Shown piece by piece: positions 27,687 through 44,019 of a stretch of 64,000 nucleotides of DNA (the first letter of the stretch is position 1; every line of letters starts with the position of its first letter). The stretch is from the IMG/VR virus record IMGVR_UViG_3300044846_001093, positions 1 to 64,000 of that record, one strand, 5' to 3'. A model generated the notes under the pieces. The model did not search any database. It saw only the letters and a program-made list of their open reading frames with translations, and was not told the DNA's origin. This stretch comes from a virus. Taxonomy: Duplodnaviria > Heunggongvirae > Uroviricota > Caudoviricetes. A program made the position numbers and the translations under genes.

Positions 27687-27900
27687 CTAGTGGTCCTAAT
27701 CTAGGGTCTCTTTGTCCCTTAAATATATGTTGAGGACAAGTTCTTGTCACATCACATGTTGGCAATTTACATATTTCTTTTTCCCAGTTTTCTGGATTTT
27801 GGCATGGGTAACGAAATCTATCACCACCAAAAATAGCTAATGCTATAGGTATGAGTAAAAATACTCCAAGCCATTTGAATAGTTTTACATCACGATTCAT
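27601..27900 (-). CDS. Secreted cysteine-rich small protein, 99 aa
   Basis: N-terminal TM/signal. 6 Cys (CQNPENWEKEICKLPTCDVTRTC...C...C). Confidence 0.4.
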   Translation of the reverse strand: MNRDVKLFKWLGVFLLIPIALAIFGGDRFRYPCQNPENWEKEICKLPTCDVTRTCPQHIFKGQRDPRLGPLDENKNVIGAVVPTPAICPTPTKGEACAK

Positions 27901-28526
27901 CAGTGTGCTCCTAGTACATGTAGTGCATGTTCATAGTGCTTGATACGATCATCAAGACCAATTGTGCCACCGTTGATTCGTTTAGTCAGTGTAACGATAT
28001 CACCTTTGTCGGCCCACTGATTCAGATTGTTTGTTTCCCAGAACCAGCAAGCAGATTGTGCAGCGCCTTCAAACGTCAACAGATACTCAGATGCGTCCTC
28101 TACTGAAATTTGTAGGGACTCAGCAAACCATGTGTAATTGCTCTTGCCTGTCAATTGAATCAAGCCCTTGCCTGCATAGCGCCAGCCATCACCAGTTTCT
28201 GGTGCACCATTGCCCATACGATTAGCATACACCAGATTAGCAATAGCTTCTTGCTTATTTGGCTTACTTGCATATTCGTTTGCCATAGCATCAGTTGGAA
28301 AATACTTTGGAAAAATCTTACGTAGAGTTGGCGCACGATAATTCAGATTCTCTCTGAGTACCATGAAGTTACCTGATTCGTGAGCGCACTGTGCAACGAA
28401 TGCTGCAATACGCTGCGGTGTATTGATATTGTACTCAGGCAGCAACTGCGATAGCGCAGAATGCCACTGGTCAATATATGGATTCTTCGGAAGAAGTTTT
28501 TTCAGTTGGTCTTTTGTTAATTCCAT
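27900..28526 (-). CDS. Endolysin, glycoside hydrolase family 19 (chitinase-like lysozyme)
   Basis: AQCAHESGNF...ENLNY...GKGLIQLTGKSNY matches GH19 catalytic signatures. Confidence 0.8.
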   Translation of the reverse strand: MELTKDQLKKLLPKNPYIDQWHSALSQLLPEYNINTPQRIAAFVAQCAHESGNFMVLRENLNYRAPTLRKIFPKYFPTDAMANEYASKPNKQEAIANLVYANRMGNGAPETGDGWRYAGKGLIQLTGKSNYTWFAESLQISVEDASEYLLTFEGAAQSACWFWETNNLNQWADKGDIVTLTKRINGGTIGLDDRIKHYEHALHVLGAH

Positions 28527-28795
28527 TATTTTACACTCTCAAATATTATTTTTTGTTTATTGTACCATTCTATCCATGCGCTTGTCTTGACAGCACAAAC
28601 ATAATATTCAGTGTAATTCACAGTGATTGTCTTGGACACATCGCTCAATTTTGGTTCGCCGTCCAGCTTCTTTAGATCAGGACATTGTTCCATCATAATC
28701 TTACCTGGTGGTTCAGGAAATTTTGCTGCTACTGGCACTGTTGTTGAACAGCCCATTAGCAGTATTGTTGCACAGCACACCATCAATGTTTTCAT
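28526..28795 (-). CDS. Outer-membrane lipoprotein, o-spanin (Rz1-like) candidate, 89 aa
   Basis: Lipobox LLMGC. Pro-rich periplasmic part. ATGA overlap with upstream i-spanin candidate. Confidence 0.55.
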   Translation of the reverse strand: MKTLMVCCATILLMGCSTTVPVAAKFPEPPGKIMMEQCPDLKKLDGEPKLSDVSKTITVNYTEYYVCAVKTSAWIEWYNKQKIIFESVK

Positions 28796-29220
28796 TTGGC
28801 TACCTCAGCAGCTTTGTTGTGCGCTTCCACAAATTCTTTTGGTATCACACATCGTTCATCATACTTGACAACTTCACGATCTATGTATTGAATAACATCT
28901 TTGCCACGTTCTTTGTAATACTCACGCTTGACTACAACTTTTTCAACAATCTCTGTGTTGACTTTAGCTGCGGCTACTTCAGCGCCAGCAATCTTGAGTT
29001 CAAGTTCTTTGACTCTTGCTTCCCATTTTTCATTATTACTGATAGCACCAGCCATGTAAGTGCCAAATGCTATCAGAATGATGGATGATATTTGTATTGG
29101 AGATTTATAGATGTAGATGGCTGGAATGAACTTCAACACAGAAGTTGCAGCAAGACCTAACACGCCAGCAAAAAAGCAAGCATAGAAAATCCAACTAGGA
29201 AGCCATTCCAAAATCCACAC
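28792..29220 (-). CDS. Inner-membrane i-spanin (Rz-like) candidate, 142 aa
   Basis: N-terminal TM segments then coiled coil (EARVKELELKIAGAEVAAAKV). Confidence 0.5.
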   Translation of the reverse strand: MWILEWLPSWIFYACFFAGVLGLAATSVLKFIPAIYIYKSPIQISSIILIAFGTYMAGAISNNEKWEARVKELELKIAGAEVAAAKVNTEIVEKVVVKREYYKERGKDVIQYIDREVVKYDERCVIPKEFVEAHNKAAEVAK

Positions 29221-29554: not shown

Positions 29555-29967
29555 TTTATTTCCCTAAGAACTTCAGCAACTTTCAAGTCCACAGCTATGT
29601 CGGATGATATAATGTTCTGTCCTTTGATACCTCTTACCACACTCGGCATGTAATTTAGAAACAGCAAGTATGTTTTGAGTGTATGATAATCTTCTTTGTG
29701 TACGCGATAAAACAACAATCTAGTTGCAACCTCAACACCAAAAACATTATACAACACTATCAGGTGATTGATGACAAGACGCTCACGCATCTCGCCTTCT
29801 TTTCTGTACCTATAGAACAAGCGTTTCAAATAATTGAACCGCTTCATGTCTTCTTTGAACTCACTCATAATACAGTTGGGCTTATCGTAAGCCTTGACTG
29901 CATATAGTAGGACGTTCTCACTGGTCAAATCATCAAAAGACATTTTAGCTTTCGTCTTCCCCTTCAA
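29551..29967 (-). CDS. Hypothetical protein, 138 aa
   Basis: ATGA overlap. Confidence 0.45.
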   Translation of the reverse strand: MKGKTKAKMSFDDLTSENVLLYAVKAYDKPNCIMSEFKEDMKRFNYLKRLFYRYRKEGEMRERLVINHLIVLYNVFGVEVATRLLFYRVHKEDYHTLKTYLLFLNYMPSVVRGIKGQNIISSDIAVDLKVAEVLREIK

Positions 29968-30307
29968 GTTCAGACATTGCTTGTTCTACGCCACTTTCAT
30001 CCATAATTTCAGCATAAAAATCATAGTATCCATCATCCGTTGGATAATACAGAATATACAGAAAACTATCGCCAGATAAGTGTGTTGCTAATTCTTCACC
30101 TTCAGTGTTCAAATCATAAAGGGACTCAAATGCGATTCCCTCAAGATAAAGTATTTTACGAATCTTCGCGATACCAGATTCTGGTGTCAAGACAGGCTGA
30201 GTTAGCTCAACCATCAACATCAGATTGAGGTTATTCTGTGTCACAGGATCGATGGAGACTTCATCTCCACCTTCCATTGACTCTGTGATGAATTCTTTGA
30301 AATTCAT
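29945..30307 (-). CDS. Hypothetical acidic protein, 120 aa
   Basis: ORF. Confidence 0.45.
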   Translation of the reverse strand: MNFKEFITESMEGGDEVSIDPVTQNNLNLMLMVELTQPVLTPESGIAKIRKILYLEGIAFESLYDLNTEGEELATHLSGDSFLYILYYPTDDGYYDFYAEIMDESGVEQAMSELEGEDES

Positions 30308-30887: not shown

Positions 30888-30895
30888 TATTTATG
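30888..30895 (-). promoter_or_regulatory. Near-consensus late promoter (CATAAATA)
   Basis: Same 23-nt geometry to ATG as the consensus late promoter at 44012. One mismatch to TATAAATA. Confidence 0.25.
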
Positions 30896-32876
30896 TTTTG
30901 ATAATCTGTGATGAAAGCTCAGGTTCAGCTTGAAATGTATCAGCTTTCTCTTTGCTAGATGACTTAGAATTCTTAGCCAAATCTTTTACGATGCCAGCAG
31001 TCTTAGATAGTGATCGTCTTGCTGGTGTGCTAGTCTTTTCATAAGAATCTTCTGGCTCCTGCTCTTCCTTTAGCCCTGCTTGTTTACGTGCAGCAGTCTT
31101 CGCAAGATGCTTGACTCTAGACATTGCTGTGTGTTTTGCACCAGATTTGTCTGTTGTCACTTTCTTTGTGTTTTTGACATAAGGACCATCAAATGGAACT
31201 TCTTGGCGCTCTTTACCCAAGTCTGTTGCAGTTTGTTCAGCAGTAATGATAGGTGTTGGCTTCATAGGCTTCTTAGCTGGTCCAGATGTGAAACGACCTG
31301 CGTCTGGATTCTCGTTGGAGTTGCTAGTTTGACCAACTTCTTCCGCCACAACACTCTCAGCTTTGTACTTCTTAAACATATCAGTACCTTTTCTTGGCGC
31401 AAGACCTTGTGTGCGATATGCAGCAGCAGAAACAGCAGCGTATCGTTTCGTCTTCTTACTCGCTTCAGCGTTCGTGCCAGCACCTGGCAACTCTCTTGCG
31501 CTGTCCATTGCTTTATTGACATAAGAGCCAAGAGTTTTCTTAGACAACTCATCAATCTGCTCAACTTCTTCCTTCATATCATGTTTCTTCTTGAGATACT
31601 TTTCAACCTTGCGATCATATTCGCCTTTAGGTGATTTAGGTGTGCTGGTCTTCGCTTTGTCTAGAATTCTTTTATGTGCAGGATCAACTTCTTCCTTCAT
31701 CCCTGTACGGCGAGACTCACCTTCAATGTATGAGTGTAGAGATTCAACATCACTTTGAACTTTAGATAGTTTGTTCTGATACCACTCTTCAATTTCACCA
31801 CCCATCTCAATGAACTCAAGAATTTCTTCAGCAGCATACTTGATGAAATGCAGTTGCGTTTGAGCCATCTCAGTCTTTTCTGTGGTATCCGATTCAGCTT
31901 GCTCATTGATTTCAGCTTGTTTCAAAATACCTTTGACCAATGGTGCCTTCAATTGGCGATGACGCGGTACTGGAATGTGATGCTTTGCATCTGGATGTGT
32001 GTATACATCATGACTGCCTGATGTACGTGAGAGTTTCCAACCACGCTTCTTCAGATGTTGATGCACAGCACGGGTATCCATGTTAGCACCAGGCATTTCT
32101 TCTAGTTGTTCAACTTCCTCATGCTTCAATGTTCTCATTCCCGGATCAATGTTGCCTTTATTATCATAACGATGCTGAACACCTTTCTTACCTTGAGCTT
32201 CTAAATCTTTCATAGCCTTATTAGCGTCTGGATAGTTTGAATGTGTGCTAGTTTTGATCCAGTCACCTTTAGAATTTCTGTGACCTACGTGAATTGTTTC
32301 TTCCGTCACAACTTCAACAGACTCATCCCACTGCTTACCACGTGCCGCATTTCTAGCCGCAGCTTTTGCACCATAGTTCTGTTGTAGCCTCTCAGCATCA
32401 TACTTGTGTACTGTGGCGCCTTTAACCTTCTTTGCCACGTTCTCTGCATGAGACTTGGTTTCAAATGTCTTCCAGTGACGACCATTGACATGCACCGAGT
32501 GATAGTCTTTGGCATCAGCTTCGGCTAGTTCAACTTCCTCATTAGTCTGTGAGTTTTTCAAATCTTTCTCGGATGGTGCACCCTCTGAGCCAGGCTTACG
32601 CATACGTTCACCTGAGCCGCTCTTGATTCTTTCACGCTTGGCATGAATGTTGGCCCACAGACCAGCTTCTTCAATGGTTTCTTCTTTGACGGATTTGCCA
32701 GCCGATTTATCACCATAAGTTGCTTGACGTTTTTTAGCAAGGTCGATCTTATCTTTGACAGCTTTTCCTAACTTAGGATCAGCCTTCAACATCCATCCTG
32801 TTCCAAGAGACTTTTTACCCTCTTCCAAAATGTCCTCGCCGCGGACAAGACTTGCAATCTGCTTGAAACTTCTCAT
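30891..32876 (-). CDS. Large Lys-rich protein with embedded HicA/YcfA-like domain, 661 aa
   Basis: HQHLKKRGWKLSRTSGSHDVYTHPDAKHHIPVPRHRQLKAPLVKGILKQA matches the HicA fold consensus. Carries one EEVEQIDELSKKTLGSYVNKA module. Otherwise predicted disordered and K/E-rich. Confidence 0.55.
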   Translation of the reverse strand: MRSFKQIASLVRGEDILEEGKKSLGTGWMLKADPKLGKAVKDKIDLAKKRQATYGDKSAGKSVKEETIEEAGLWANIHAKRERIKSGSGERMRKPGSEGAPSEKDLKNSQTNEEVELAEADAKDYHSVHVNGRHWKTFETKSHAENVAKKVKGATVHKYDAERLQQNYGAKAAARNAARGKQWDESVEVVTEETIHVGHRNSKGDWIKTSTHSNYPDANKAMKDLEAQGKKGVQHRYDNKGNIDPGMRTLKHEEVEQLEEMPGANMDTRAVHQHLKKRGWKLSRTSGSHDVYTHPDAKHHIPVPRHRQLKAPLVKGILKQAEINEQAESDTTEKTEMAQTQLHFIKYAAEEILEFIEMGGEIEEWYQNKLSKVQSDVESLHSYIEGESRRTGMKEEVDPAHKRILDKAKTSTPKSPKGEYDRKVEKYLKKKHDMKEEVEQIDELSKKTLGSYVNKAMDSARELPGAGTNAEASKKTKRYAAVSAAAYRTQGLAPRKGTDMFKKYKAESVVAEEVGQTSNSNENPDAGRFTSGPAKKPMKPTPIITAEQTATDLGKERQEVPFDGPYVKNTKKVTTDKSGAKHTAMSRVKHLAKTAARKQAGLKEEQEPEDSYEKTSTPARRSLSKTAGIVKDLAKNSKSSSKEKADTFQAEPELSSQIIKT

Positions 32877-32877
32877 A

Positions 32878-34209
32878 TTACTCTCCTTTAGCTTGCTTTG
32901 TTGCTGTAGCGTACATCACAGACTTAGCATCTTTGCCATAACGCTCTTTGAAGCCAGCAATGTTCTTCTTCATGCCTTTGACATTCTTTTCCATTGCAGC
33001 CTTTTCGCCAGTGGACAATGAACGCTCTTCAATGTGCTCAACTTCTTCCTGTGTGACGCCACGTGGACCACGGTCATCTTTAACACCACCAGCTTTCATC
33101 AATGCAGCCCTGTCAGCATAGCTGGAACGCTTAACATCTTTAGCCGCAGTCTTGATTGTGGGAGTTTGATTTTTCTTGTCAATATGTTTCATTGCATCAA
33201 ATTTTGCCTCCGTGACTTGCTCAACTTCTTCTTTTTTCAGCATTTTCTTACCAGGTTCTGCTGCTTTATCTTTAGCCATTCGTTGTTTTTGCTTTTCTAC
33301 TGCGGCTCTATATTCAGGACTGTTTATATCTCTATATGGAGTTTTTTGTTTTTCTTTTGGGCCTGAACCCTCAACCACAACTTCTTCCTTAGCTAGACGA
33401 TCAACAGCTTTGCCCATGTTTTCGCGGCGCTTCCAAGACTTAGCAAACATCTTGTTGGATTTGTCGTCAGCTTTCTTTGCATCCCAATAATTTGAATCTT
33501 TTTTAGCAGCAGCCGAATCGTTAGCGAATTGGCGAGTCAATGCACCCTTGTGTGCCACATCATGAGATGCTTTCTTGACATAAGATGCTAGTGTAGACTT
33601 TTTCAATTCATCTAGTTGCTCAACTTCTTCTTTGGTCAGTCTGTCTGTGGCCTTGACAATAGAATCCGTTCTCTTATTCATATTTTTTGTGATGGGAGAC
33701 CACTTTTTCTTAGCAGCATACTGACCAGCACTAATACCTTTCTGGCCCAAATCAAAAGCTGCTTTTTTTACATATGAACCAAGAGTCTTTTTAGACAGTT
33801 CATCTAGTTGCTCAACTTGTTCGTTCTGAACAGCTTGCACGGCAGGCTTTGCAACTTGAGCTTTGCTCTTGCCCATAGACTTGTCTTGTGCAATCTTGAT
33901 TTCTTTGTTGAACTCTTCCTGAGATGCTTCCTCTTTTGTATACTTCTTAGTGTACACAGTGCCTGTGGAGATTTTCTTGGCTGTATGACCAGTCTTTTCA
34001 CCTTTTTCAGCCGTTTGGCGTGGAGTATTCTTCCAGTCAAATGGGCTAGCAGGCTTCTTGGCTTCCTCTTTGCGCAACAACTTGAAGTCGTGTGCATCAA
34101 CTTTGCCGTTTTTGTTTTTATCGATCTTGTGTTGATCGCCCTTTAGTGCTTCGTCCACAACAGCTTTCACTGCTTCGGCCACTGATTTTAGAATTTTATC
34201 GTTGAACAT
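32878..34209 (-). CDS. Lys-rich repeat protein, 443 aa
   Basis: Two copies of the (E)QVEQLDELSKKTLGSYVKKA..KG module plus degenerate EEVEQ/EEVEH copies. K ~20%. Confidence 0.55.
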   Translation of the reverse strand: MFNDKILKSVAEAVKAVVDEALKGDQHKIDKNKNGKVDAHDFKLLRKEEAKKPASPFDWKNTPRQTAEKGEKTGHTAKKISTGTVYTKKYTKEEASQEEFNKEIKIAQDKSMGKSKAQVAKPAVQAVQNEQVEQLDELSKKTLGSYVKKAAFDLGQKGISAGQYAAKKKWSPITKNMNKRTDSIVKATDRLTKEEVEQLDELKKSTLASYVKKASHDVAHKGALTRQFANDSAAAKKDSNYWDAKKADDKSNKMFAKSWKRRENMGKAVDRLAKEEVVVEGSGPKEKQKTPYRDINSPEYRAAVEKQKQRMAKDKAAEPGKKMLKKEEVEQVTEAKFDAMKHIDKKNQTPTIKTAAKDVKRSSYADRAALMKAGGVKDDRGPRGVTQEEVEHIEERSLSTGEKAAMEKNVKGMKKNIAGFKERYGKDAKSVMYATATKQAKGE

Positions 34210-34226: not shown

Positions 34227-34874
34227 TTAAATTTTCACAATAGTTAATATTGCACTTGGTAATGCAGGTCTTGCATATGGAGTAGTTTGCGCTGCTGTAT
34301 ATTCTAATTTCATAAGGTCGATTCTACTAACAGCAAATTTCAATTCCAGATAATCGTCCGCAGCGATACCGTCCACTAACCATTGCTTACTGATGTATTC
34401 ATACACTGGAGTTTCTACACTACCTTGTCTAACTTCTATTTTGACCGCAGATTCTGCTACGTTATTATTGTTTTTTGCCAACCACAAAAACACATCACGT
34501 GGTGCGTTGCCAGTAGTTTTAACCAGCATTTCCACTGTTATCAAATAATTGCCTGCAGAACTGAAAGTCACTTGAGTGGGCTGACCTGATGTTACAGTGA
34601 CACCCTGCGTATTGACATGGGCTGTTGTATTATTAAACCAGTCAAATGAAAATGCTGCGTTGGCTTCCGTTGCTACTACATCTGCTACTTTGTGAAAGCA
34701 ACCAAATACTGGATTACTTTCACCAAGTGATAGTCCACCAGCAGTAGAACCATCTGACATTCTTAATGAAGTAGTTGTTGGATCATAAAAAATCTCACCT
34801 TCATTACCAATATAATCAGATGCTTGGCGACCGCCCATCTTGTCGGCAGTTAATTTGAATGTTTTGTTAGCCAT
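34227..34874 (-). CDS. Beta-rich globular protein, possible virion/fibre-associated, 215 aa
   Basis: Non-repetitive, low-charge sequence unlike neighbours. TAAATG junction with the downstream gene. Confidence 0.45.
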   Translation of the reverse strand: MANKTFKLTADKMGGRQASDYIGNEGEIFYDPTTTSLRMSDGSTAGGLSLGESNPVFGCFHKVADVVATEANAAFSFDWFNNTTAHVNTQGVTVTSGQPTQVTFSSAGNYLITVEMLVKTTGNAPRDVFLWLAKNNNNVAESAVKIEVRQGSVETPVYEYISKQWLVDGIAADDYLELKFAVSRIDLMKLEYTAAQTTPYARPALPSAILTIVKI

Positions 34875-35252
34875 TTAGCAATTCCATTTTCTTAGTGCGA
34901 GAGCTTTACGAGACGGCTCTCCGTTAGGTTTCTTCATCGGACCTTCCACTCCACCCATTCTAGCGCAGAATGACTTGCGACGGTTAGCAGCTTTACTGCC
35001 TGGTGTCAATTTTGATGGTGGTGTTGTGACTGGTGCTTTTAGATTGCCGCCATCTTTTCTGTTGTAGTAGTCACGGCCCTTTTGAGTTAGACCACCAGTA
35101 GAACTCTTCAGTCCTTTGGCATCAACTGCGGCTTCCACTACAGTTTCTTCTTTGACACAAGAATCGGGTGAGTATGCTTTCTTACCTGGAACAGGCTTGT
35201 ATTTTGACCAGCAACGACCGGCTTCATTGATAAAATCTGTAAATTTTTTCAT
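34875..35252 (-). CDS. Basic Lys/Pro/Gly-rich protein, 125 aa
   Basis: ATGA overlap with the 820-aa gene. Confidence 0.4.
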   Translation of the reverse strand: MKKFTDFINEAGRCWSKYKPVPGKKAYSPDSCVKEETVVEAAVDAKGLKSSTGGLTQKGRDYYNRKDGGNLKAPVTTPPSKLTPGSKAANRRKSFCARMGGVEGPMKKPNGEPSRKALALRKWNC

Positions 35253-37711
35253 AAGTAGTTCTTTGCTTTAAATGTGCTTAGTGATATGCCCTGTTTAGCA
35301 AGTTCATCCTGTTTCTGTGCACCAATTGATGCTGTGGTTGAATCGCCACCCATTTCAGCAACTGGCTTCTTCTTCAAAGGATTCACTTTGCCACTCTTGT
35401 CATTGATCTCACCCATGTCGCGGCCGATGCTTTCGCCACCAGCCGCCATTGACATGCCAACTTCTACGCCTTTGTCGATGGCTTCTTTGAATGAGCTTTT
35501 GGCTTGCGAGAGGGTGAGCTTGCCTTTATAGCGGCTGGCTTCTTGGATGTTTTTGGAGCTGGCTTTGGCTCCTGTACTACCACTGATGCTTCTACCTTCG
35601 GTAATGGTTGTGGCTCCGGTAATACTACTGGCTCTGGTACTACCACTGGTGCTTCCACCTTCGGTAATGGTTGTGGCTCTGGTTCCACTGGTGGTTTGCT
35701 CTTCACAAAGAAACTTTTCAGAAATTTCAACATTTACATTCTCCTTCAATTTGACTATGTAACCTTTGTCTGTCTTGACCACTTCACCACCTTTGGTGTG
35801 TGCGTCTTTAGCAGCATTGTTTCGTATTGCATATACTTTAGGCTTATTGCCAGATGCAATATATGTAGCTCCGTCTTTTACGACTGTTCTTTCACCACTA
35901 ATACTTTCAGAGACAAACATAGGCTTGCCGAGCGTGAGAAGATTGTATGCACCAGAATCGGACATTACTATCTGATCCACGTGCTCTTCAACTTCTTGCT
36001 CCTCAGCATCTCCATTGCCTGTCATCATCTGTATTGTTTTTTGCAATTCTTCTGGAGTATCAGCTTTGAAAGTGACTGAAACAGCTTCAAAAAGATTCTG
36101 GAAATCTTCATTGATAGACTCTTTGACTGGTTTCTTGCGCGTGGGCTTCTGGCTACTAGCTCCACTCATAGGAACTTCAGCAGTCTTCTTGATCATCTTT
36201 TGCTGTTCAGTGTGTGTTGGATCCTGCACCAAAGTTCCATGAACTGAGTGATGCGTGACTTTACCATTCTTGCCGTATCTGCCATAGCCATAGTATTGAA
36301 GACCAAGGCGTCTAGCTTCATCAGTTGCTTTGTTTTCACCCTCAGCGGAGTGTGGAAGAGACTGTTCTGTGCCTTTCTTAGGAATAGGCAGTGTGTCTTT
36401 CTTCTGTAGTTCACCAGCAACCCATGCTTTAGCTTGTTCGTTCTTAGGTGGTGCTTGCACAAACTTTTGAACAGTCTTGAAGACTTTATCCATTTCCTCT
36501 TTTTTGGCTTTGACAACTTCTGGTGGTGCATTGCGCAAGTCTTCGGAGTTATCAAATTCAACATAACTGTTGCCAAACAGTTTAGCCATATCTGGGCGTG
36601 AATTGTGTACTGCGTCCCACTTTTCTTTACGAATGTTCTCGGGAACTGTACGACCACCTCTTTGCCCACGTTCAACGTTTCTCTGTGCAGAAACTTCATC
36701 TTGTGTGACAACTGCGACCATAGAAGTTTCGTAGCCAATCTCTTCTAGGTTCTTCTTTATCTTAGCATACTTTGCAGGATCATCGCCTGTGCCATTGATA
36801 ATGATACCGTTACGACCTAACAGCGCCAGCTTTTGCTTTAACTCTGTCATGTCTTTTGCTTTACCGCGAACAAGGGTTCGTGCGTCAGCTTCAGTCTCTG
36901 GCATTTTCTTGTCCAGATTGTTCTTATCCATCAGGAACTCAAGTGCTTTGTCTGAGTTGATTTCAATCAATCCATGACCAGCGAGTGTGTTATCCAGCAC
37001 ATAGTCTTTGCCTGAGCCTGGACCACCAGATAGAAACACAGCCTTGAAAATGCCTTTATCGTGGACACCTTCAGATAGAATCATCTGAATTTGTGATCGG
37101 AAGTCTTCTTTGACTTGCATTCCCTTACGCACATCGCTATACAATTCTTTAGCGTGTTCTGGTGCTACGTGACTTGGAATGCCTTTTTTAAATTCTTTGA
37201 AGTTGCCTTTTGATGCATGACTGCGCATCTTGGATGCAGACATACCAGATACGCCCTCAGCATCAGGATCGCGTTCACCAGCGGAGTGTACGTGAATACC
37301 ACGGAACTTGAAGTATCCATGCGTACCTTTTACGCCATTGTATTTGTGTAATATCTTTTCGTACTCACCAGTTCTATCGGAGCCTGCAACCATGTGCAAG
37401 TGTGTAGCGCCAGCTTTGTGGAGTTTTGATGCTTGAGCCAGAAAGTTTGGATGTTCTTTACTGGAGGTTGTGATATTCGTGTCAGGAAAATATCGTTGTG
37501 CGTGTTTGACTTTTTGCTCACCTGAGAGTGGATTCTTCTCAGCGTCCTGTGAATGCGATAGAACAACGTGGTGTGTTCCCTTCACAGATTTAGCAACATC
37601 TTTGACTTTATCAACCAGTTTTGCATGACCGGTTGTTGGTGGATTCATGCGGCCGAAAGCAAGGACCGCATGTTTTTCTGTTGTTTCTTCTAGATATTCT
37701 ATAAACTTCAT
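35249..37711 (-). CDS. Multidomain protein: N-terminal NadM-like NMN adenylyltransferase (HxGH NTase) + P-loop kinase + long Lys/Ser/Thr-rich disordered tail, 820 aa
   Basis: FGRMNPPTTGH matches NadM/NadR GRFxPxHxGH. SGMSASKMR matches ISGTxIR. Walker A LSGGPGSGKDY, and IINGTGDD. C-terminal TTITEGxSxSGST repeats. Confidence 0.55.
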   Translation of the reverse strand: MKFIEYLEETTEKHAVLAFGRMNPPTTGHAKLVDKVKDVAKSVKGTHHVVLSHSQDAEKNPLSGEQKVKHAQRYFPDTNITTSSKEHPNFLAQASKLHKAGATHLHMVAGSDRTGEYEKILHKYNGVKGTHGYFKFRGIHVHSAGERDPDAEGVSGMSASKMRSHASKGNFKEFKKGIPSHVAPEHAKELYSDVRKGMQVKEDFRSQIQMILSEGVHDKGIFKAVFLSGGPGSGKDYVLDNTLAGHGLIEINSDKALEFLMDKNNLDKKMPETEADARTLVRGKAKDMTELKQKLALLGRNGIIINGTGDDPAKYAKIKKNLEEIGYETSMVAVVTQDEVSAQRNVERGQRGGRTVPENIRKEKWDAVHNSRPDMAKLFGNSYVEFDNSEDLRNAPPEVVKAKKEEMDKVFKTVQKFVQAPPKNEQAKAWVAGELQKKDTLPIPKKGTEQSLPHSAEGENKATDEARRLGLQYYGYGRYGKNGKVTHHSVHGTLVQDPTHTEQQKMIKKTAEVPMSGASSQKPTRKKPVKESINEDFQNLFEAVSVTFKADTPEELQKTIQMMTGNGDAEEQEVEEHVDQIVMSDSGAYNLLTLGKPMFVSESISGERTVVKDGATYIASGNKPKVYAIRNNAAKDAHTKGGEVVKTDKGYIVKLKENVNVEISEKFLCEEQTTSGTRATTITEGGSTSGSTRASSITGATTITEGRSISGSTGAKASSKNIQEASRYKGKLTLSQAKSSFKEAIDKGVEVGMSMAAGGESIGRDMGEINDKSGKVNPLKKKPVAEMGGDSTTASIGAQKQDELAKQGISLSTFKAKNYL
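35567..35704 (-). repeat. Imperfect in-frame tandem repeat (~45-nt unit, about 2.5 copies) inside the 820-aa gene
   Basis: ggctc[ct]ggtactaccactg[ag]tgcttc[tc]accttcggtaatggttgt repeated. Encodes TTITEG.S.SGST units. Confidence 0.6.
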
Positions 37712-37765
37712 TTACTCCGCCTCTACAGCAAGTTTCATTATAGTCTATTTAGCAAAAAACAAATG

Positions 37766-38458
37766 TCAATCGTGAATCAGTTCTCCGGTTCTGGCGATTC
37801 TTCCAGTACAATACACACGATCAACCTCAACCAACTTGTCCTTAGGAATGTTCAAGAAATGGGCATGTTCGGTGTCCATTGAGCTAAGGCAGTCAAATAC
37901 ACCATTGAGAACGCCGAAATATTCATCAGCAAGACTACCACATAGAGAATAGAGCCTAGTATCAATACAGTGAGTTGCACCCATAACAACAGGATTCATC
38001 CATGTGGCATTCCTTCGTTTGAACACATATTTGCCCTGCTTGTCAGCATAATATGATATGTCAAAACCATCATCAAGAACATACCTACCAGATATCTTGA
38101 AAATTCTGTCGTATTTCAATTCATTTTTGAAAAGAAAATTCATCATTTCCATCATAATAACAGTCTCACTCTTACTCTGATATCTATTCTCAGAGAACAA
38201 TTTGACTGCCCTGTGGTCGTTGAAACTCACAATCTTACAGTATCTCTGCAACTCATCTGCTATTCCACCAAGCGATGCCATGGATATATCAGCGAGAAAA
38301 ATATCAGCGGTTGGATCTTTCTCACGAATTGACTTGAGTGTCTTTATGGTGTCTTCAAATCTTTCCATAGAATTGAAGACACCACTGTTCGTTAGCAATG
38401 CTGAGGTTACAATGAATACGTTCATGTGTGATTGAAATCTTTGAATATGACAAACCAA
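37766..38458 (-). CDS. Hypothetical protein, 230 aa (glycan-cluster member)
   Basis: ORF. Confidence 0.45.
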   Translation of the reverse strand: MVCHIQRFQSHMNVFIVTSALLTNSGVFNSMERFEDTIKTLKSIREKDPTADIFLADISMASLGGIADELQRYCKIVSFNDHRAVKLFSENRYQSKSETVIMMEMMNFLFKNELKYDRIFKISGRYVLDDGFDISYYADKQGKYVFKRRNATWMNPVVMGATHCIDTRLYSLCGSLADEYFGVLNGVFDCLSSMDTEHAHFLNIPKDKLVEVDRVYCTGRIARTGELIHD

Positions 38459-41396: not shown

Positions 41397-41702
41397 TTAC
41401 TGACCTGGTGTATCTCGTTTATATCGCTTGACTAGCGTGTCTGTACCATCTTGACCAGCGCCAGCTACAGGAAGAATGTCTGGATTAGGAGACTTCTTTT
41501 CTTCATGCACACTTTTATGTAGCTGAACTCCAGTGACTTTCTGGACCATATCCCAAGCATCTTTTGTTCGCTTGTTCTTCACATGATCATCAAATTTCTT
41601 CTTCTGATCTGGTGTAGCTTTTTGCTTGAATTTGATAAGCTCCATGATGCCGATGTTACCAGCATAAGCGGCTTCTTTGACAAGTTCTTTGAACGACTGC
41701 AT
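41397..41702 (-). CDS. Hypothetical Lys-rich protein, 101 aa
   Basis: ORF. Confidence 0.45.
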   Translation of the reverse strand: MQSFKELVKEAAYAGNIGIMELIKFKQKATPDQKKKFDDHVKNKRTKDAWDMVQKVTGVQLHKSVHEEKKSPNPDILPVAGAGQDGTDTLVKRYKRDTPGQ

Positions 41703-41989
41703 TATTCGCCTCGCGTCAATGTTAGTATTTTTTGTATTTGTGATTCTATCATTGGACCACGATTAGGCCATTTGATGACAGGCTGATCAGCAGTCTTCAG
41801 TAATCTAGTCAGAAATGGAATTATCAGCTTTTCCAATTCTTTCATTCGCTTCTTATACTCTTCAACCGTCTCGTCCTTCTGCGCAATGACAGCAGTGAAG
41901 TCTTCTTCCTGTTCTGCGGTGAAACCGAAGTCGTCATCACCATATTCTTCCATGATCTTGGTCAGATCAAACTTTTTCATTTGTCCCAC
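41702..41989 (-). CDS. Hypothetical acidic protein, 95 aa
   Basis: ORF. Confidence 0.45.
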   Translation of the reverse strand: MGQMKKFDLTKIMEEYGDDDFGFTAEQEEDFTAVIAQKDETVEEYKKRMKELEKLIIPFLTRLLKTADQPVIKWPNRGPMIESQIQKILTLTRGE

Positions 41990-43209
41990 GCTTTCTGGGC
42001 GGTGAAGTTGGCATGGCTGAATTCAAGTCTATCAACTAGCTTGACTGCATTGCCTTTCAATCTATCAACAGCAACAAAGCCTTCTGGATTTGTAACTTTG
42101 AATCCATTATCAGTACGCAAGAATGCACCAGTGACTTGACGCATCTGTTGCAATTTCTTGATGATTATGTTTTTTGAATCTACGATCATGTTCATAATAT
42201 CAAAAATCTTTACAAGCTCGGCAAAGTTGTTTCTGTAGAATCGCATGATCTCATTCTTTTCAGCTTGACGCTTTAGCTTAGTGTCTTCTCTCTTAGCTGC
42301 AATAATCTCTTTATTCAACTTGTCTTCAATCCACTTCAACAATCCTTTTGCATGTTCGGTTGTATCCTTGATGTGTTCACCGGAACGCACTTTCGTGTTG
42401 TTGTATGTCTTGATCTGCACATTGAATATTTCAGAGGTAGCAATACGATTTAGTGTCATGCTACTGGTTCTTTGAAATAATGAGCCGGCTTGAGATAGTA
42501 TGGCTGTGATTTCTTTAGTCTCTTTTTCGGTAAATGTTACTGTGCCAGATGCATCAACAAAATATGCATCACGGAACCAAACATCTTTAGTTGCTTTCAT
42601 TCTACCGATATCAATGTTGAATGAAGCCTTCAAATCTGCAATTGTCTTTCCTGTGTATGCTGTGTGAAACACGATACCCATTTGTGCAGCCAACATAGAC
42701 TTAGCCAGTGCAGAGTCTTCAGGAACTGCATACACAAGTGTATTTGGCTGAAATGTCACATACTTTACACCATCAATCGTTGCTTTCTTGATATCGCCTT
42801 TAGCAAACATCATATCGCCTTGCAGAATGCCGTCAATACCAATCTTTGGCAAGTATGCTAGTGCAACTTTCAATTTCTTATTCAGTCCTTCACCAGGATG
42901 ATTTCTATCAATATCATCATCTGTGTAGTTTAGCTTTGCATCCTTGTTGAAGATACCCTTTGTAGCAACAAAGAATTTACCATTCTCAGGATTAGTGCCA
43001 GCAAATACAGCAGGTGCACCATCCCACTTCGTGCTGACGTATACCTTACCATCTGAGTTGCCAGCAAGCATGTCTCTAAGTGATCGCAAAAAGTTAATTG
43101 CATCCCTCGTACCAGCTACACCACGATTTAGAACTTCTTCCTCAATATGCTCTAGGTGAACGTTCTTGCCTTCTTTTGAGGCCTCTGTTAGGAATTCTTT
43201 GAATTTCAT
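41977..43209 (-). CDS. rnlA: RNA ligase 1 family (T4 RnlA/gp63-like)
   Basis: Motif I STKWDGAPAVF...KG (KxDG). Motif IV NPEGFVAVDRLKGNAVKLVDR parallels T4 Rnl1 EGYVAV...KIK. 410 aa. Confidence 0.6.
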   Translation of the reverse strand: MKFKEFLTEASKEGKNVHLEHIEEEVLNRGVAGTRDAINFLRSLRDMLAGNSDGKVYVSTKWDGAPAVFAGTNPENGKFFVATKGIFNKDAKLNYTDDDIDRNHPGEGLNKKLKVALAYLPKIGIDGILQGDMMFAKGDIKKATIDGVKYVTFQPNTLVYAVPEDSALAKSMLAAQMGIVFHTAYTGKTIADLKASFNIDIGRMKATKDVWFRDAYFVDASGTVTFTEKETKEITAILSQAGSLFQRTSSMTLNRIATSEIFNVQIKTYNNTKVRSGEHIKDTTEHAKGLLKWIEDKLNKEIIAAKREDTKLKRQAEKNEIMRFYRNNFAELVKIFDIMNMIVDSKNIIIKKLQQMRQVTGAFLRTDNGFKVTNPEGFVAVDRLKGNAVKLVDRLEFSHANFTAQKAWDK

Positions 43210-44011: not shown

Positions 44012-44019
44012 TATTTATA
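44012..44019 (-). promoter_or_regulatory. T4-type late promoter TATAAATA
   Basis: Minus strand reads TATAAATAtccaataaaacattGGAGtttacATG, 23-nt leader. Confidence 0.5.

Follow-up and report, generated by a model that had tools for sequence, protein, structure and literature searches.

What is the function of two long Lys-rich proteins encoded side by side in a T4-like phage genome, one of which carries a toxin-fold domain in its interior? The question is raised by a 64,000-nucleotide stretch of IMG/VR virus record IMGVR_UViG_3300044846_001093 (positions 1 to 64,000, the whole of which is referred to below as the window), where two adjacent minus-strand genes encode proteins of 661 and 443 aa that we call A661 and B443. 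The gene content of the window is T4-like, with a PolB that has ~51% identity to those of cyanomyoviruses, UvsX, a clamp loader, DnaB, ribonucleotide reductase and an endolysin with spanins. The closest cultured relative, judged by the DUF6267 protein g410, is the OM43 myophage Melnitz (50% identity). We propose that A661, and probably B443 as well, serve as precursors for cargo carried inside the capsid of a T4-like (Kyanoviridae-type) phage, and would represent a polyprotein counterpart of the T4 internal proteins (IPs) IPI-III and Alt. We put the probability of this reading, which is drawn from sequence comparison, at roughly 0.55. It is favored by T4-type leaders, by L/I-x-E motifs at the leader end and at the junctions between modules, by a conserved genomic locus, and by mass spectrometry (MS) of the virions of relatives. 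Together these observations lend substantial, if indirect, support to an earlier suggestion from a first-pass annotation, which had likened the two to ejected internal proteins.

Both open reading frames (ORFs) are present exactly as claimed in the first-pass annotation of this DNA. One base separates the B443 stop from the A661 start, and a Shine-Dalgarno-like AAAGGAG is found upstream of A661.

30891..32876 (-): A661 ORF, a 661-aa Lys-rich mosaic with a leader, ~7 modules including HicA, and a conserved C-terminal peptide
32878..34209 (-): B443 ORF, a 443-aa Lys-rich mosaic protein

The same annotation had described the two proteins as giant, about 20% Lys and largely low-complexity. B443 comes near this composition (18.7% Lys, net charge +32) and A661 falls well short of it (13.5% Lys, net charge +20), and both proteins are large rather than giant. 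The low-complexity regions are better described as low-confidence helix or coil, predicted disordered or helical, with a mean predicted local distance difference test score (pLDDT) in AlphaFold2 (AF2) models of 52.9 for A661 and 54.5 for B443. Besides the HicA domain, confident AF2 folds occur only at A661 121-160 and B443 400-440. The repeated module that had been noted is borne out, in the form of three full copies and six 8-residue linkers of the type EEVEQ(L/I)xE. No named family other than HicA was identified in either protein with Pfam, NCBIfam or PHROGs, a fold search of B443 against the PDB gave no match (best E=1), and a fold search of A661 against BFVD returned nothing beyond HicA.

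Leaders, junctions and shuffled modules

The propeptides of T4 internal proteins, 10-19 residues long, are capsid-targeting sequences (CTSs), in which positions 4 and 7 serve targeting and positions 8 and 10 serve processing by gp21, which cuts after L/I-X-E (PMC9026906). The leader is the only part that T-even internal proteins have in common (PMC12373910; PMC3012670). T4 IPII and IPIII start with MKTYQEFIAE↓A and T4 IPI starts with MKTFKEFTSTTTPVSTITE↓A, where the arrow, here and below, marks the known or presumed cut. A661 starts with a leader of this kind:

32820..32876 (-): A661 leader MRSFKQIASLVRGEDILEE↓G, residues 1-19, a match to pattern P2

At 19 aa, this leader has the length and pattern of that of T4 IPI, with an aromatic residue at position 4 (F4) and a hydrophobic one at position 7 (I7), and it closes with I-L-E18 / L-E-E19 before a G. 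The A661 family retains this type of leader, which in relatives ends in L-E-E↓G, L-D-E↓G or L-D-E↓M, and residues 13-33 of A661 are predicted with pLDDT <50 (AF2). The patterns used here, P1 and P2 (long), were derived strictly from T4 and include positions 4, 7, 8 and 10. In the window, seven true gene starts fit them. Six of the seven are clustered within 13 kb (29.9-43.2 kb), namely A661 and the following five:

29945..30307 (-): g120, acidic 120-aa protein with leader MNFKEFITE↓S
34875..35252 (-): g125, leader MKKFTDFINE↓A (strict P1), linker VKEETVVE↓A and a DUF6321 basic domain
35249..37711 (-): g820, leader MKFIEYLEE↓T, a cytidylyltransferase/NMNAT-like domain, a Zeta-toxin/AAA_33 P-loop kinase and a disordered tail
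41397..41702 (-): g101, 101-aa gene with leader MQSFKELVKE↓A
41977..43209 (-): g410, DUF6267 protein with leader MKFKEFLTE↓A

The same leaders occur on syntenic genes of Melnitz. The maturation site of gp23 reads SFLTE↓AE in T4 and SFLNE↓AP in cyanophage S-CAM9, so the specificity of the prohead protease is plausibly the same in this lineage. S-CAM9, S-CREM2 and S-SCSM1 all encode a prohead protease and keep the L-x-E↓A site in gp23.

Within the two proteins, modules are joined by a linker, E[EQD][VI][EDV][QEH][LIV].E, that is found six times in a six-frame translation of the window. All six occurrences lie inside A661 or B443, a confinement that is far beyond chance:

33799..33822 (-): junction EQVEQLDE, B130-137
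33607..33630 (-): junction EEVEQLDE, B194-201
33208..33231 (-): junction EEVEQVTE, B327-334
33025..33048 (-): junction EEVEHIEE, B388-395
32097..32120 (-): junction EEVEQLEE, A253-260, directly before HicA
31548..31571 (-): junction EEVEQIDE, A436-443

Three of these junctions (B130, B194 and A436) open a full copy of the module (E/Q)VEQ[LI]DEL[SK]K[KS]TL[GA]SYV[KN]KA, the LSKKTLGSYVKKA type. At the DNA level, the copies form a three-member family of 90 nt with 61-72% identity, which indicates old rather than recent duplications. We considered whether the SKKTLGSYVKKA module corresponds to DUF7443 (PF24227) and rejected this assignment, given scores of 16.3 and 12.1 bits against a threshold of 27 over only ~19 profile positions; a relative with five copies (P0195) barely passes that threshold, at 28.1 bits.

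In metagenomes, A661 has >1,358 homologues and B443 >5,535, on contigs of up to ~170 kb. Among 240 listed homologues of the two proteins we identified 261 unique junction contexts, with the consensus K-E-E-V-E-Q-[I/L]-D-E. The junction precedes 43 downstream clusters and follows 99 upstream clusters, and it is therefore a universal inter-module linker rather than the N-terminal helix of one domain family. Directly before the MPGANM with which the HicA domain begins, ...EEVEQL(D/E)E is invariant across at least 20 upstream contexts, and [IV]-x-E always follows HicA in relatives. Junctions always close with L/I/V-x-E, the type of motif that ends the leader. In the family member P0051 the leader runs directly into junction and HicA (...VRQEHAVQLDE↓MPGAN), an arrangement that makes leader end and junction equivalent or interchangeable. 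The L/I-x-E sites of A661 at the leader end and between modules (E18/19, 70, 119, 260, 325, 443 and 604) are all in segments with pLDDT <50. Cuts at these sites would give predicted pieces of 49-161 aa, including a 65-aa HicA of pI 10.4, and the N-terminus of the predicted 49-aa piece (AGLWANIH...) nearly coincides with the start of a stand-alone podovirus gene (MAKRGLYANIH...). Comparison of these sequences, in which one linker connects dozens of distinct modules, shows that it also lies where phages swap modules with one another.

Apart from the leader and the HicA domain, the following parts can be distinguished in the two proteins:

32520..32666 (-): A661 residues 71-119, basic module AGLWANIHAKRERIKSGSGERMRKPGSEGAP..., phrog_16028 (match at 1.3e-17), preceded by T-I-E-E↓A
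32097..32519 (-): A661 residues 120-260, small beta-beta-alpha-beta domain (AF2 pLDDT 71-86 at residues 121-160; no Pfam match) and a degenerate second copy, closing with junction EEVEQLEE
31548..31901 (-): A661 residues 326-443, acidic helical segment (AF2 helices at 325-357 and 364-391) and a basic stretch, closing with junction EEVEQIDE
31065..31547 (-): A661 residues 444-604, third LSKKTLGSYV(N/K)KA module copy and a conserved basic tail, predicted disordered
30894..30935 (-): A661 extreme C-terminus FQAEPELSSQIIKT, conserved peptide after a predicted disordered tail
33799..34209 (-): B443 residues 1-137, family-specific N-terminal domain MFNDKILKSVAEAV... with EF-hand-like loop DKNKNGKVDAHD, not a canonical CTS
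34084..34122 (-): EF-hand/dockerin-like loop DKNKNGKVDAHDF, B443 residues 30-42, in the conserved N-terminal domain
33607..33798 (-): B443 residues 138-201, module copy 1 (LSKKTLGSYVKKA...)
33370..33606 (-): B443 residues 202-280, module copy 2 (LKKSTLASYVKKA...)
32881..33024 (-): B443 residues 396-443, C-terminal helical-hairpin module (...GKDAKSVMYATATKQAKGE), preceded by H-I-E-E↓R

Both families shuffle their modules, in order as well as in content. The A family can be described as three constant elements (leader, HicA and C-terminal peptide) with a shuffled middle. The C-terminal peptide has the consensus FQAEPELSSQI(I/V)K(T/V), and its PEL[ST][ST] core is found within the last 25 residues of 100 of the 120 best A661 homologues. 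The peptide might provide a second signal for targeting or docking; C-terminal processing is also known from T4 Alt and gp21. In the B443 family the N-termini are conserved. The loop in this domain gives sub-threshold Pfam EF-hand matches (14.2-16.1 bits), and S-SCSM1 ORF92 has DLDKDGNKKE at a similar position. Stretches homologous to B443 202-280 occur in proteins of P-TIM68 and Cr30, and the C-terminal hairpin (AF2 pLDDT 81-85) is shared with Synechococcus phage S-B05 and relatives.

Motifs reminiscent of the junction are also found in cyanophage head proteins. The prohead proteases of S-CAM9 and S-CREM2 (gp143) start with MKLIREEIEQVEVIVEE↓R and MKLIREEIETVELLTEE↓R, respectively, which resemble KEEVEQLDE and not the strict motif; the S-CAM9 protease (L010 3175..3825) is annotated in its record as 'prohead assembly (scaffolding) protein'. 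The S-CAM9 scaffold gp22 contains EEEVISEEE and a Lys-rich protein of Melnitz contains KEEVISEEE, a likeness only, as the strict motif is unmatched in both.

The HicA domain of A661

The domain that gives A661 its toxin-like character is bracketed by two of the sites described above, Q-L-E-E↓M and E-I-N-E↓Q:

31902..32096 (-): HicA domain (MPGANM...KQAEINE), A661 residues 261-325

The first-pass annotation had quoted its sequence correctly and placed it at residues 295-350, some way downstream of its actual position. The claim of a HicA fold itself is well founded. Residues 271-323 match Pfam PF07927 at 48.3 bits (cutoff 27), and a PHROGs match to phrog_353 'toxin' was found at 9e-15. The segment is modeled with pLDDT 85-89 by AF2 as an alpha-beta-beta-beta-alpha (H-E-E-E-H) fold resembling a double-stranded RNA-binding domain (dsRBD). 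Foldseek superposes it on 6G26_E/F, the B. pseudomallei HicAB complex, with a TM score of 0.84-0.86, a root-mean-square deviation of 1.0 A and 30% identity, and also places it on 1WHZ and 4C26. G287-S288-H289 of A661 aligns with the catalytic His24 of B. pseudomallei HicA, the residue mutated in 4C26 (H24A), and conservation of this GSH histidine, also proposed earlier, extends to 112 of 113 relatives. The HicA fold in A661 is genuine.

HicA is present in 111 of the 120 best A661 homologues, at positions from residue ~22 to 368. The whole domain is near-invariant while its surroundings diverge and shuffle. Judging by this pattern, it is under strong purifying selection, and the near-invariance of the catalytic His and of the HicA core points to an enzymatic constraint.

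HicA is normally the small stand-alone toxin of a type II toxin-antitoxin (TA) system, beside HicB; in A661 it sits inside a 661-aa protein. The viral HicA matches in BFVD are all small proteins of 56-101 aa. In agreement with the earlier claim that no antitoxin is nearby, no HicB-family match was identified among the neighbors within ~10 kb in the window, and the precomputed Pfam annotation of a syntenic contig of 172 kb likewise lists none. We also considered the acidic helical segment that follows HicA (326-395) as an antitoxin acting in cis. This was rejected as a general mechanism, with at least ten different modules found after HicA in relatives; some family members have the A661 326-443 segment at this place and others do not, and it is therefore not an obligate antitoxin in cis.

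The possibility that A661 carries an orphan or degenerate HicA from a TA, addiction or abortive-infection module, fused to an unrelated protein and with an unrecognized antitoxin nearby or in cis, can be weighed on these data. The usual role of HicA, the acidic helical segment behind it in A661, and the stand-alone HicA genes of temperate phages HP1, HP2 and Bbif-1 are in its favor. The missing HicB and the variety of modules after HicA, which leaves no fixed cis-partner, speak against it, as do the lytic T4-like type of the genome and the retention of the fusion in >100 diverse proteins. We regard this explanation as highly improbable.

The locus, its relatives and their virions

The gene order cytidylyltransferase, Lys-rich mosaic protein(s), MALW protein, DUF7207 is kept in T4-like aquatic phages (P-TIM68, Cr30, S-B05, Melnitz, S-CREM2 and S-SCSM1). 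The proteins of Melnitz at this position are not detectably homologous to A661 or B443. Proteins of P-TIM68, Cr30, S-B05 and Melnitz include modules common to 10-118 family members, with best independent E-values (iE) of 1e-15 to 1e-21. A tblastn search with the MALW protein of the window, g185, matched Cr30 only, without a functional name, and megablast against 50,697 phage records gave no match.

For two of these cyanophages, virion proteomes are available. In S-CREM2, gp154, gp155, gp156 and gp160 were detected by MS in CsCl-purified virions (PMC10665884, Table 3). Here gp154 is a cytidylyltransferase with 33.5% identity to g820 and the leader MKNFSSFLTE↓A, gp155 has 16.8% Lys, and gp160 is a 297-aa mosaic protein with 19.9% Lys and a net charge of +30, one module of which is common to the HicA-bearing family member P0034 (iE 1.2e-10). 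In S-SCSM1 (MK867354), ORF90, ORF91, ORF92, ORF93, ORF95 and ORF97 are flagged as virion proteins (PMC9602691 and the GenBank record). ORF91 is an NMNAT-like homologue of g820 with the leader MKSFLQFLKE↓A, ORF92 is a 520-aa protein with 18.1% Lys, a net charge of +41 and the sequence NKEEVELDE↓R, and ORF95 is the MALW protein.

The association between leader and virion was examined genome-wide in S-CREM2, using the annotated gene starts of OR473000 and a proteome of 52 of 219 ORFs. All four genes with a strict leader, gp6 (S-adenosylmethionine (SAM) hydrolase), gp14 (APH-like kinase), gp136 and gp154, are in the virion proteome (hypergeometric P=0.0029), and so are three near-matches, gp13, gp15 and gp155. 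On this evidence, the T4-type leader marks non-structural virion proteins of S-CREM2 (loci L013-L016).

A661 and B443 belong to a tightly packed gene string that is headed by a promoter-like element:

37742..37769 (-): sigma70-like promoter TTGACA-16-TAGACT, heading the g820-g125-g215-B443-A661 string

No T4 late promoter (TATAAATA) was found directly upstream of A661 or B443. In T4, ipII and ipIII adjoin the endolysin gene, as in the window, and are preceded by early-type promoters and not by TATAAATA. An ip-type locus would thus be consistent with the sigma70-like promoter ahead of g820, and the missing late promoter at A661 and B443 is uninformative. The window has five exact copies of TATAAATA, every one of them on the coding (-) strand and a short way ahead of a gene start. 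Within the 27-46-kb region, the two late-promoter-like (N)ATAAATA motifs (44012..44019 and 30888..30895, both -) each lie exactly 31 nt upstream of a start codon (43988 and 30864, respectively); the second overlaps the A661 stop codon and would drive the MALW gene g185. Downstream of the locus is a lysis cassette (27900..29220, -) with the endolysin (phrog_181, 2.9e-76), a lipoprotein-type o-spanin (MKTLMVCCATILLMGCS...) and an overlapping i-spanin-like gene.

The leader-bearing neighbors of A661 are themselves of interest. The Pfam domain DUF6321 is found in g125 at 91 bits. In g820, a cytidylyltransferase/NMNAT-like region (residues 9-205) is followed by a Zeta-toxin/AAA_33 kinase (223-367; Pfam Zeta_toxin, 49.5 bits) and a long Ser/Thr/Gly-rich tail, and the Zeta domain is a second TA-toxin-type domain at this locus. 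The combination of NMNAT and kinase resembles the architecture of NadR and hints at NAD-related counter-defence delivered by the virion. The acidic protein g120 (22.5% D+E, net charge -23) could be injected as a DNA mimic or to counter restriction, and its acidic counterpart in Melnitz starts with MKNFKNHIAE↓E. Between g125 and B443, g215 (34227..34874, -) has a phrog_36222-like N-terminus. In the syntenic 172-kb contig an unrelated 241-aa gene stands in its place (L005 8455..9180), and the B443 homologue is only 266 aa long; this looks like cassette-level variation between close relatives.

T7-like marine podoviruses encode the A661 71-119 module as a stand-alone gene of 49-50 aa. In Pelagibacter phage Eistla, gp44 is this module and gp45 is DUF6321, and both lie between the scaffold and capsid genes. 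These podovirus genes are tiny, leaderless and very basic, and stand side by side; DUF6321 is likewise stand-alone and without a leader. In the T4-like phage of the window, modules have a leader of their own (g125) or are strung behind one. We know of no T4-type CTS system in podoviruses. The difference between leaderless podovirus modules and leader-borne T4-like ones would be expected if the leader is an added targeting device. Clusters of such tiny basic genes (34-81 aa) occur in Eistla (gp43-gp45; L007 2406..2911) and in P-GSP1 (L006 1926..2674), and two of the proteins are homologous to A661/g125 modules. The podovirus proteins may be unrecognized internal, DNA-associated capsid proteins.

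Competing readings and known systems

The sequence of A661, together with the virion proteomes of relatives, suggests that a CTS-type leader would direct the protein into the prohead core, where a homologue of gp21 cutting at L/I-x-E↓ would remove the leader. The protease would probably also cut at KEEVEQ(L/I)(D/E)E↓, releasing ~6-8 small, mostly basic pieces per protein. The Lys-rich pieces could sit on packaged DNA, by analogy with T4, where lysines of internal proteins contact DNA phosphates, and would be expelled via the tail together with the DNA on infection. The fold and conservation of HicA suggest that the 65-aa piece (261-325, pI 10.4) would be an RNase directed at host RNA from the very onset of infection, in shut-off or counter-defence.

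Several observations weigh against a packaged precursor. B443 (MFNDKILKSVAEAV...) matches no strict leader pattern, and neither A661 nor B443 is found in any cultured phage, where we identified individual modules only. The window lacks head genes, and the prohead protease gene lies outside it. The number of [LI]xE motifs is not enriched relative to composition shuffles (A661 P=0.06, B443 P=0.5), so only the argument from position and conservation stands. At the junctions, P1' is mostly L, R, M or I, whereas the T4 sites examined and all leaders have A, S, G or T, and conservation extends over 8-9 residues, beyond a 3-residue protease motif; the junction may serve another purpose. The replication in S-SCSM1 is weak, with one of two strict-leader genes flagged as virion proteins (ORF91); ORF30 (MKTFKQFMSE↓S) is unflagged though it lies between virion-protein genes. 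As the authors of the cyanophage proteomes warn, virion preparations may contain abundant non-structural proteins that were carried along in purification (PMC10665884). A likeness between the N-termini of B443 and ORF92, noticed by eye and extending to the EF-hand-like loop, was discarded, as a profile hidden Markov model of 71 B-family N-termini scores ORF92 no differently from shuffled decoys.

Some of these points would be accommodated if A661 and B443 were cytoplasmic, non-packaged proteins for host takeover or anti-defence that are made early, with EEVEQLDE serving as a flexible linker or recombination joint and MKxFxEF as a feature of translation initiation. The atypical P1' and the junction conservation in excess of what a protease site needs fit this explanation, as does detection in relatives' virions if it reflects co-purifying abundant proteins (PMC10665884). 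So do the sigma70-like early promoter at the head of the string, the replication and nucleotide-metabolism genes around it, and the lack of TATAAATA directly upstream of A661 and B443; but the argument from timing is neutral, since T4 ip genes are also early-type and have no TATAAATA. Against this explanation, the strict leader, defined at positions 4, 7, 8 and 10 and not just by MK, goes with virion detection in 4 of 4 S-CREM2 genes (P=0.003). The leaderless podovirus versions of the modules likewise indicate that the leader is an added signal. On balance, we consider a cytoplasmic role unlikely. A further alternative is that both are structural head proteins that condense DNA or scaffold the core and are never delivered, with HicA as a non-catalytic, dsRBD-like nucleic-acid-binding domain. 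High Lys content, net charges of +20 and +32 and mostly helical, low-confidence structure are what such proteins might show; EEVE-type acidic motifs occur in scaffolds (AEEEVEK in T4 gp22, EEEVISEEE in S-CAM9 gp22), and the homologous tiny basic podovirus genes lie between scaffold and capsid genes. Yet the catalytic His and the HicA core are nearly invariant, and module content varies between close relatives (266 vs 443 aa in the B homologues), unlike an essential scaffold. Furthermore, the basic internal proteins of T4 are both DNA-bound and injected (PMC3012670). A purely structural role therefore appears improbable to us.

The packaged-precursor reading can be extended to a broader proposal, which we advance tentatively and hold to be doubtful. 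Kyanoviridae-type T4-like phages might use an undescribed CTS system whose cargo is made as cassette polyproteins of up to ~8 modules per leader. The linker would be both cut site and recombination joint, and processing would free basic DNA-coating peptides together with an injected HicA RNase. If so, this would be the first TA toxin domesticated as a virion-delivered, first-strike weapon. An antitoxin would be dispensable, as HicA would be synthesized late in infection and stay confined first to the polyprotein and then to the capsid. In this proposal the Zeta-like kinase/NMNAT protein g820 and the acidic g120, both with leaders, would be further injected effectors.

There are precedents for HicA, for internal proteins of T-even phages that are directed by a CTS, and for polyvalent proteins that are packaged. 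The earlier claim that no family with this architecture has been described agrees with our searches, in which Pfam, NCBIfam, PHROGs, PDB, BFVD and the literature name only HicA. In family databases and the searchable literature we found no description of a CTS-like system in cyanophage-type T4-likes, of a universal linker by which shuffled cargo modules are strung into polyproteins, or of a HicA domain as presumptive virion cargo. Literature searches likewise gave no hits for DUF6321, DUF6267, DUF7207, DUF7443, CTS in cyanophages or HicA in T4-likes. If the packaged-precursor reading is correct, leader targeting, protease release and co-injection would extend from a few coliphages to the abundant T4-likes of cyanophage, pelagiphage and methylophage type; Kyanoviridae-type T4-likes rank with the most numerous phages of aquatic habitats. 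A provisional function would become available for thousands of Lys-rich metagenomic proteins now called 'hypothetical', and a leader with L/I-x-E would predict injected effectors from sequence, such as the SAM hydrolase, kinase and NMNAT-like enzyme of S-CREM2. The HicA RNase fold would have a new use, as virion cargo. A modular polyprotein that packs many small cargos would also be of interest for the engineering of capsids as protein-delivery vehicles.

Several described systems can be compared with A661 and B443. The inner-body proteins of the phiKZ-like giant phages phiKZ, 201phi2-1 and SPN3US are cut after Glu, often at several sites, and are packaged and in some cases ejected (PMC9026906). 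That system relies on a gp21-related prohead protease, but its motif is S/A-X-E, it has no CTS-type leader, and it belongs to a different lineage with a different capsid size and no sequence relationship. The HicAB toxins (PF07927; 6G26, 4C26, 1WHZ) share with A661 the fold, the length of ~60 aa and the G-S-H histidine; the A661 domain differs in being embedded, without HicB, in a protein of a lytic T4-like phage, and flanked by L/I/V-x-E. Polyvalent proteins of phages and conjugative elements (Iyer et al. 2017, PMC5512222) are similar in combining many small domains with extreme mosaicism, and in their predicted capsid packaging and delivery into the host. They are defined by recognizable enzymatic or anti-restriction domains, at least two of them conflict domains, whereas HicA, which has no occurrence in PMC5512222, is the sole recognizable domain here; the remainder of A661 and B443 is basic and disordered, and the universal linker with its protease motif is striking.

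The virion proteins of S-CREM2 (gp154, gp155, gp160) and S-SCSM1 (ORF91-ORF93) offer a further comparison. They occupy the same locus, downstream of a cytidylyltransferase/NMNAT gene and upstream of the MALW and DUF7207 genes, and have 18-20% Lys, net charges of +30 to +41, a KEEVE(L)DE-type junction (ORF92) and leaders on the cytidylyltransferases. Unlike A661, they have no HicA, and they show no significant direct similarity to A661 or B443. They are annotated as hypothetical or 'virion protein' and have never been linked to CTS or processing.

The T4 internal proteins IPI-III and Alt share several features with A661: a leader of 10-19 residues with an aromatic position 4, a hydrophobic position 7 and an L/I-x-E close, a Lys-rich (12.6-15% in T4 IPs) and basic composition, hypervariability with homology limited to the leader, and a location in a T4-like phage near the endolysin gene with early-type promoters. 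Unlike these T4 proteins, B443 lacks the leader. Further, T4 IPs are single proteins of 95-193 aa, while A661 and B443 are chains of 443-661 aa with ~6-8 modules and universal linkers, which would imply multiple internal cuts. The known T4 IPs are inhibitors of GmrSD (PMC12373910); A661 carries a TA-type RNase-fold module instead.

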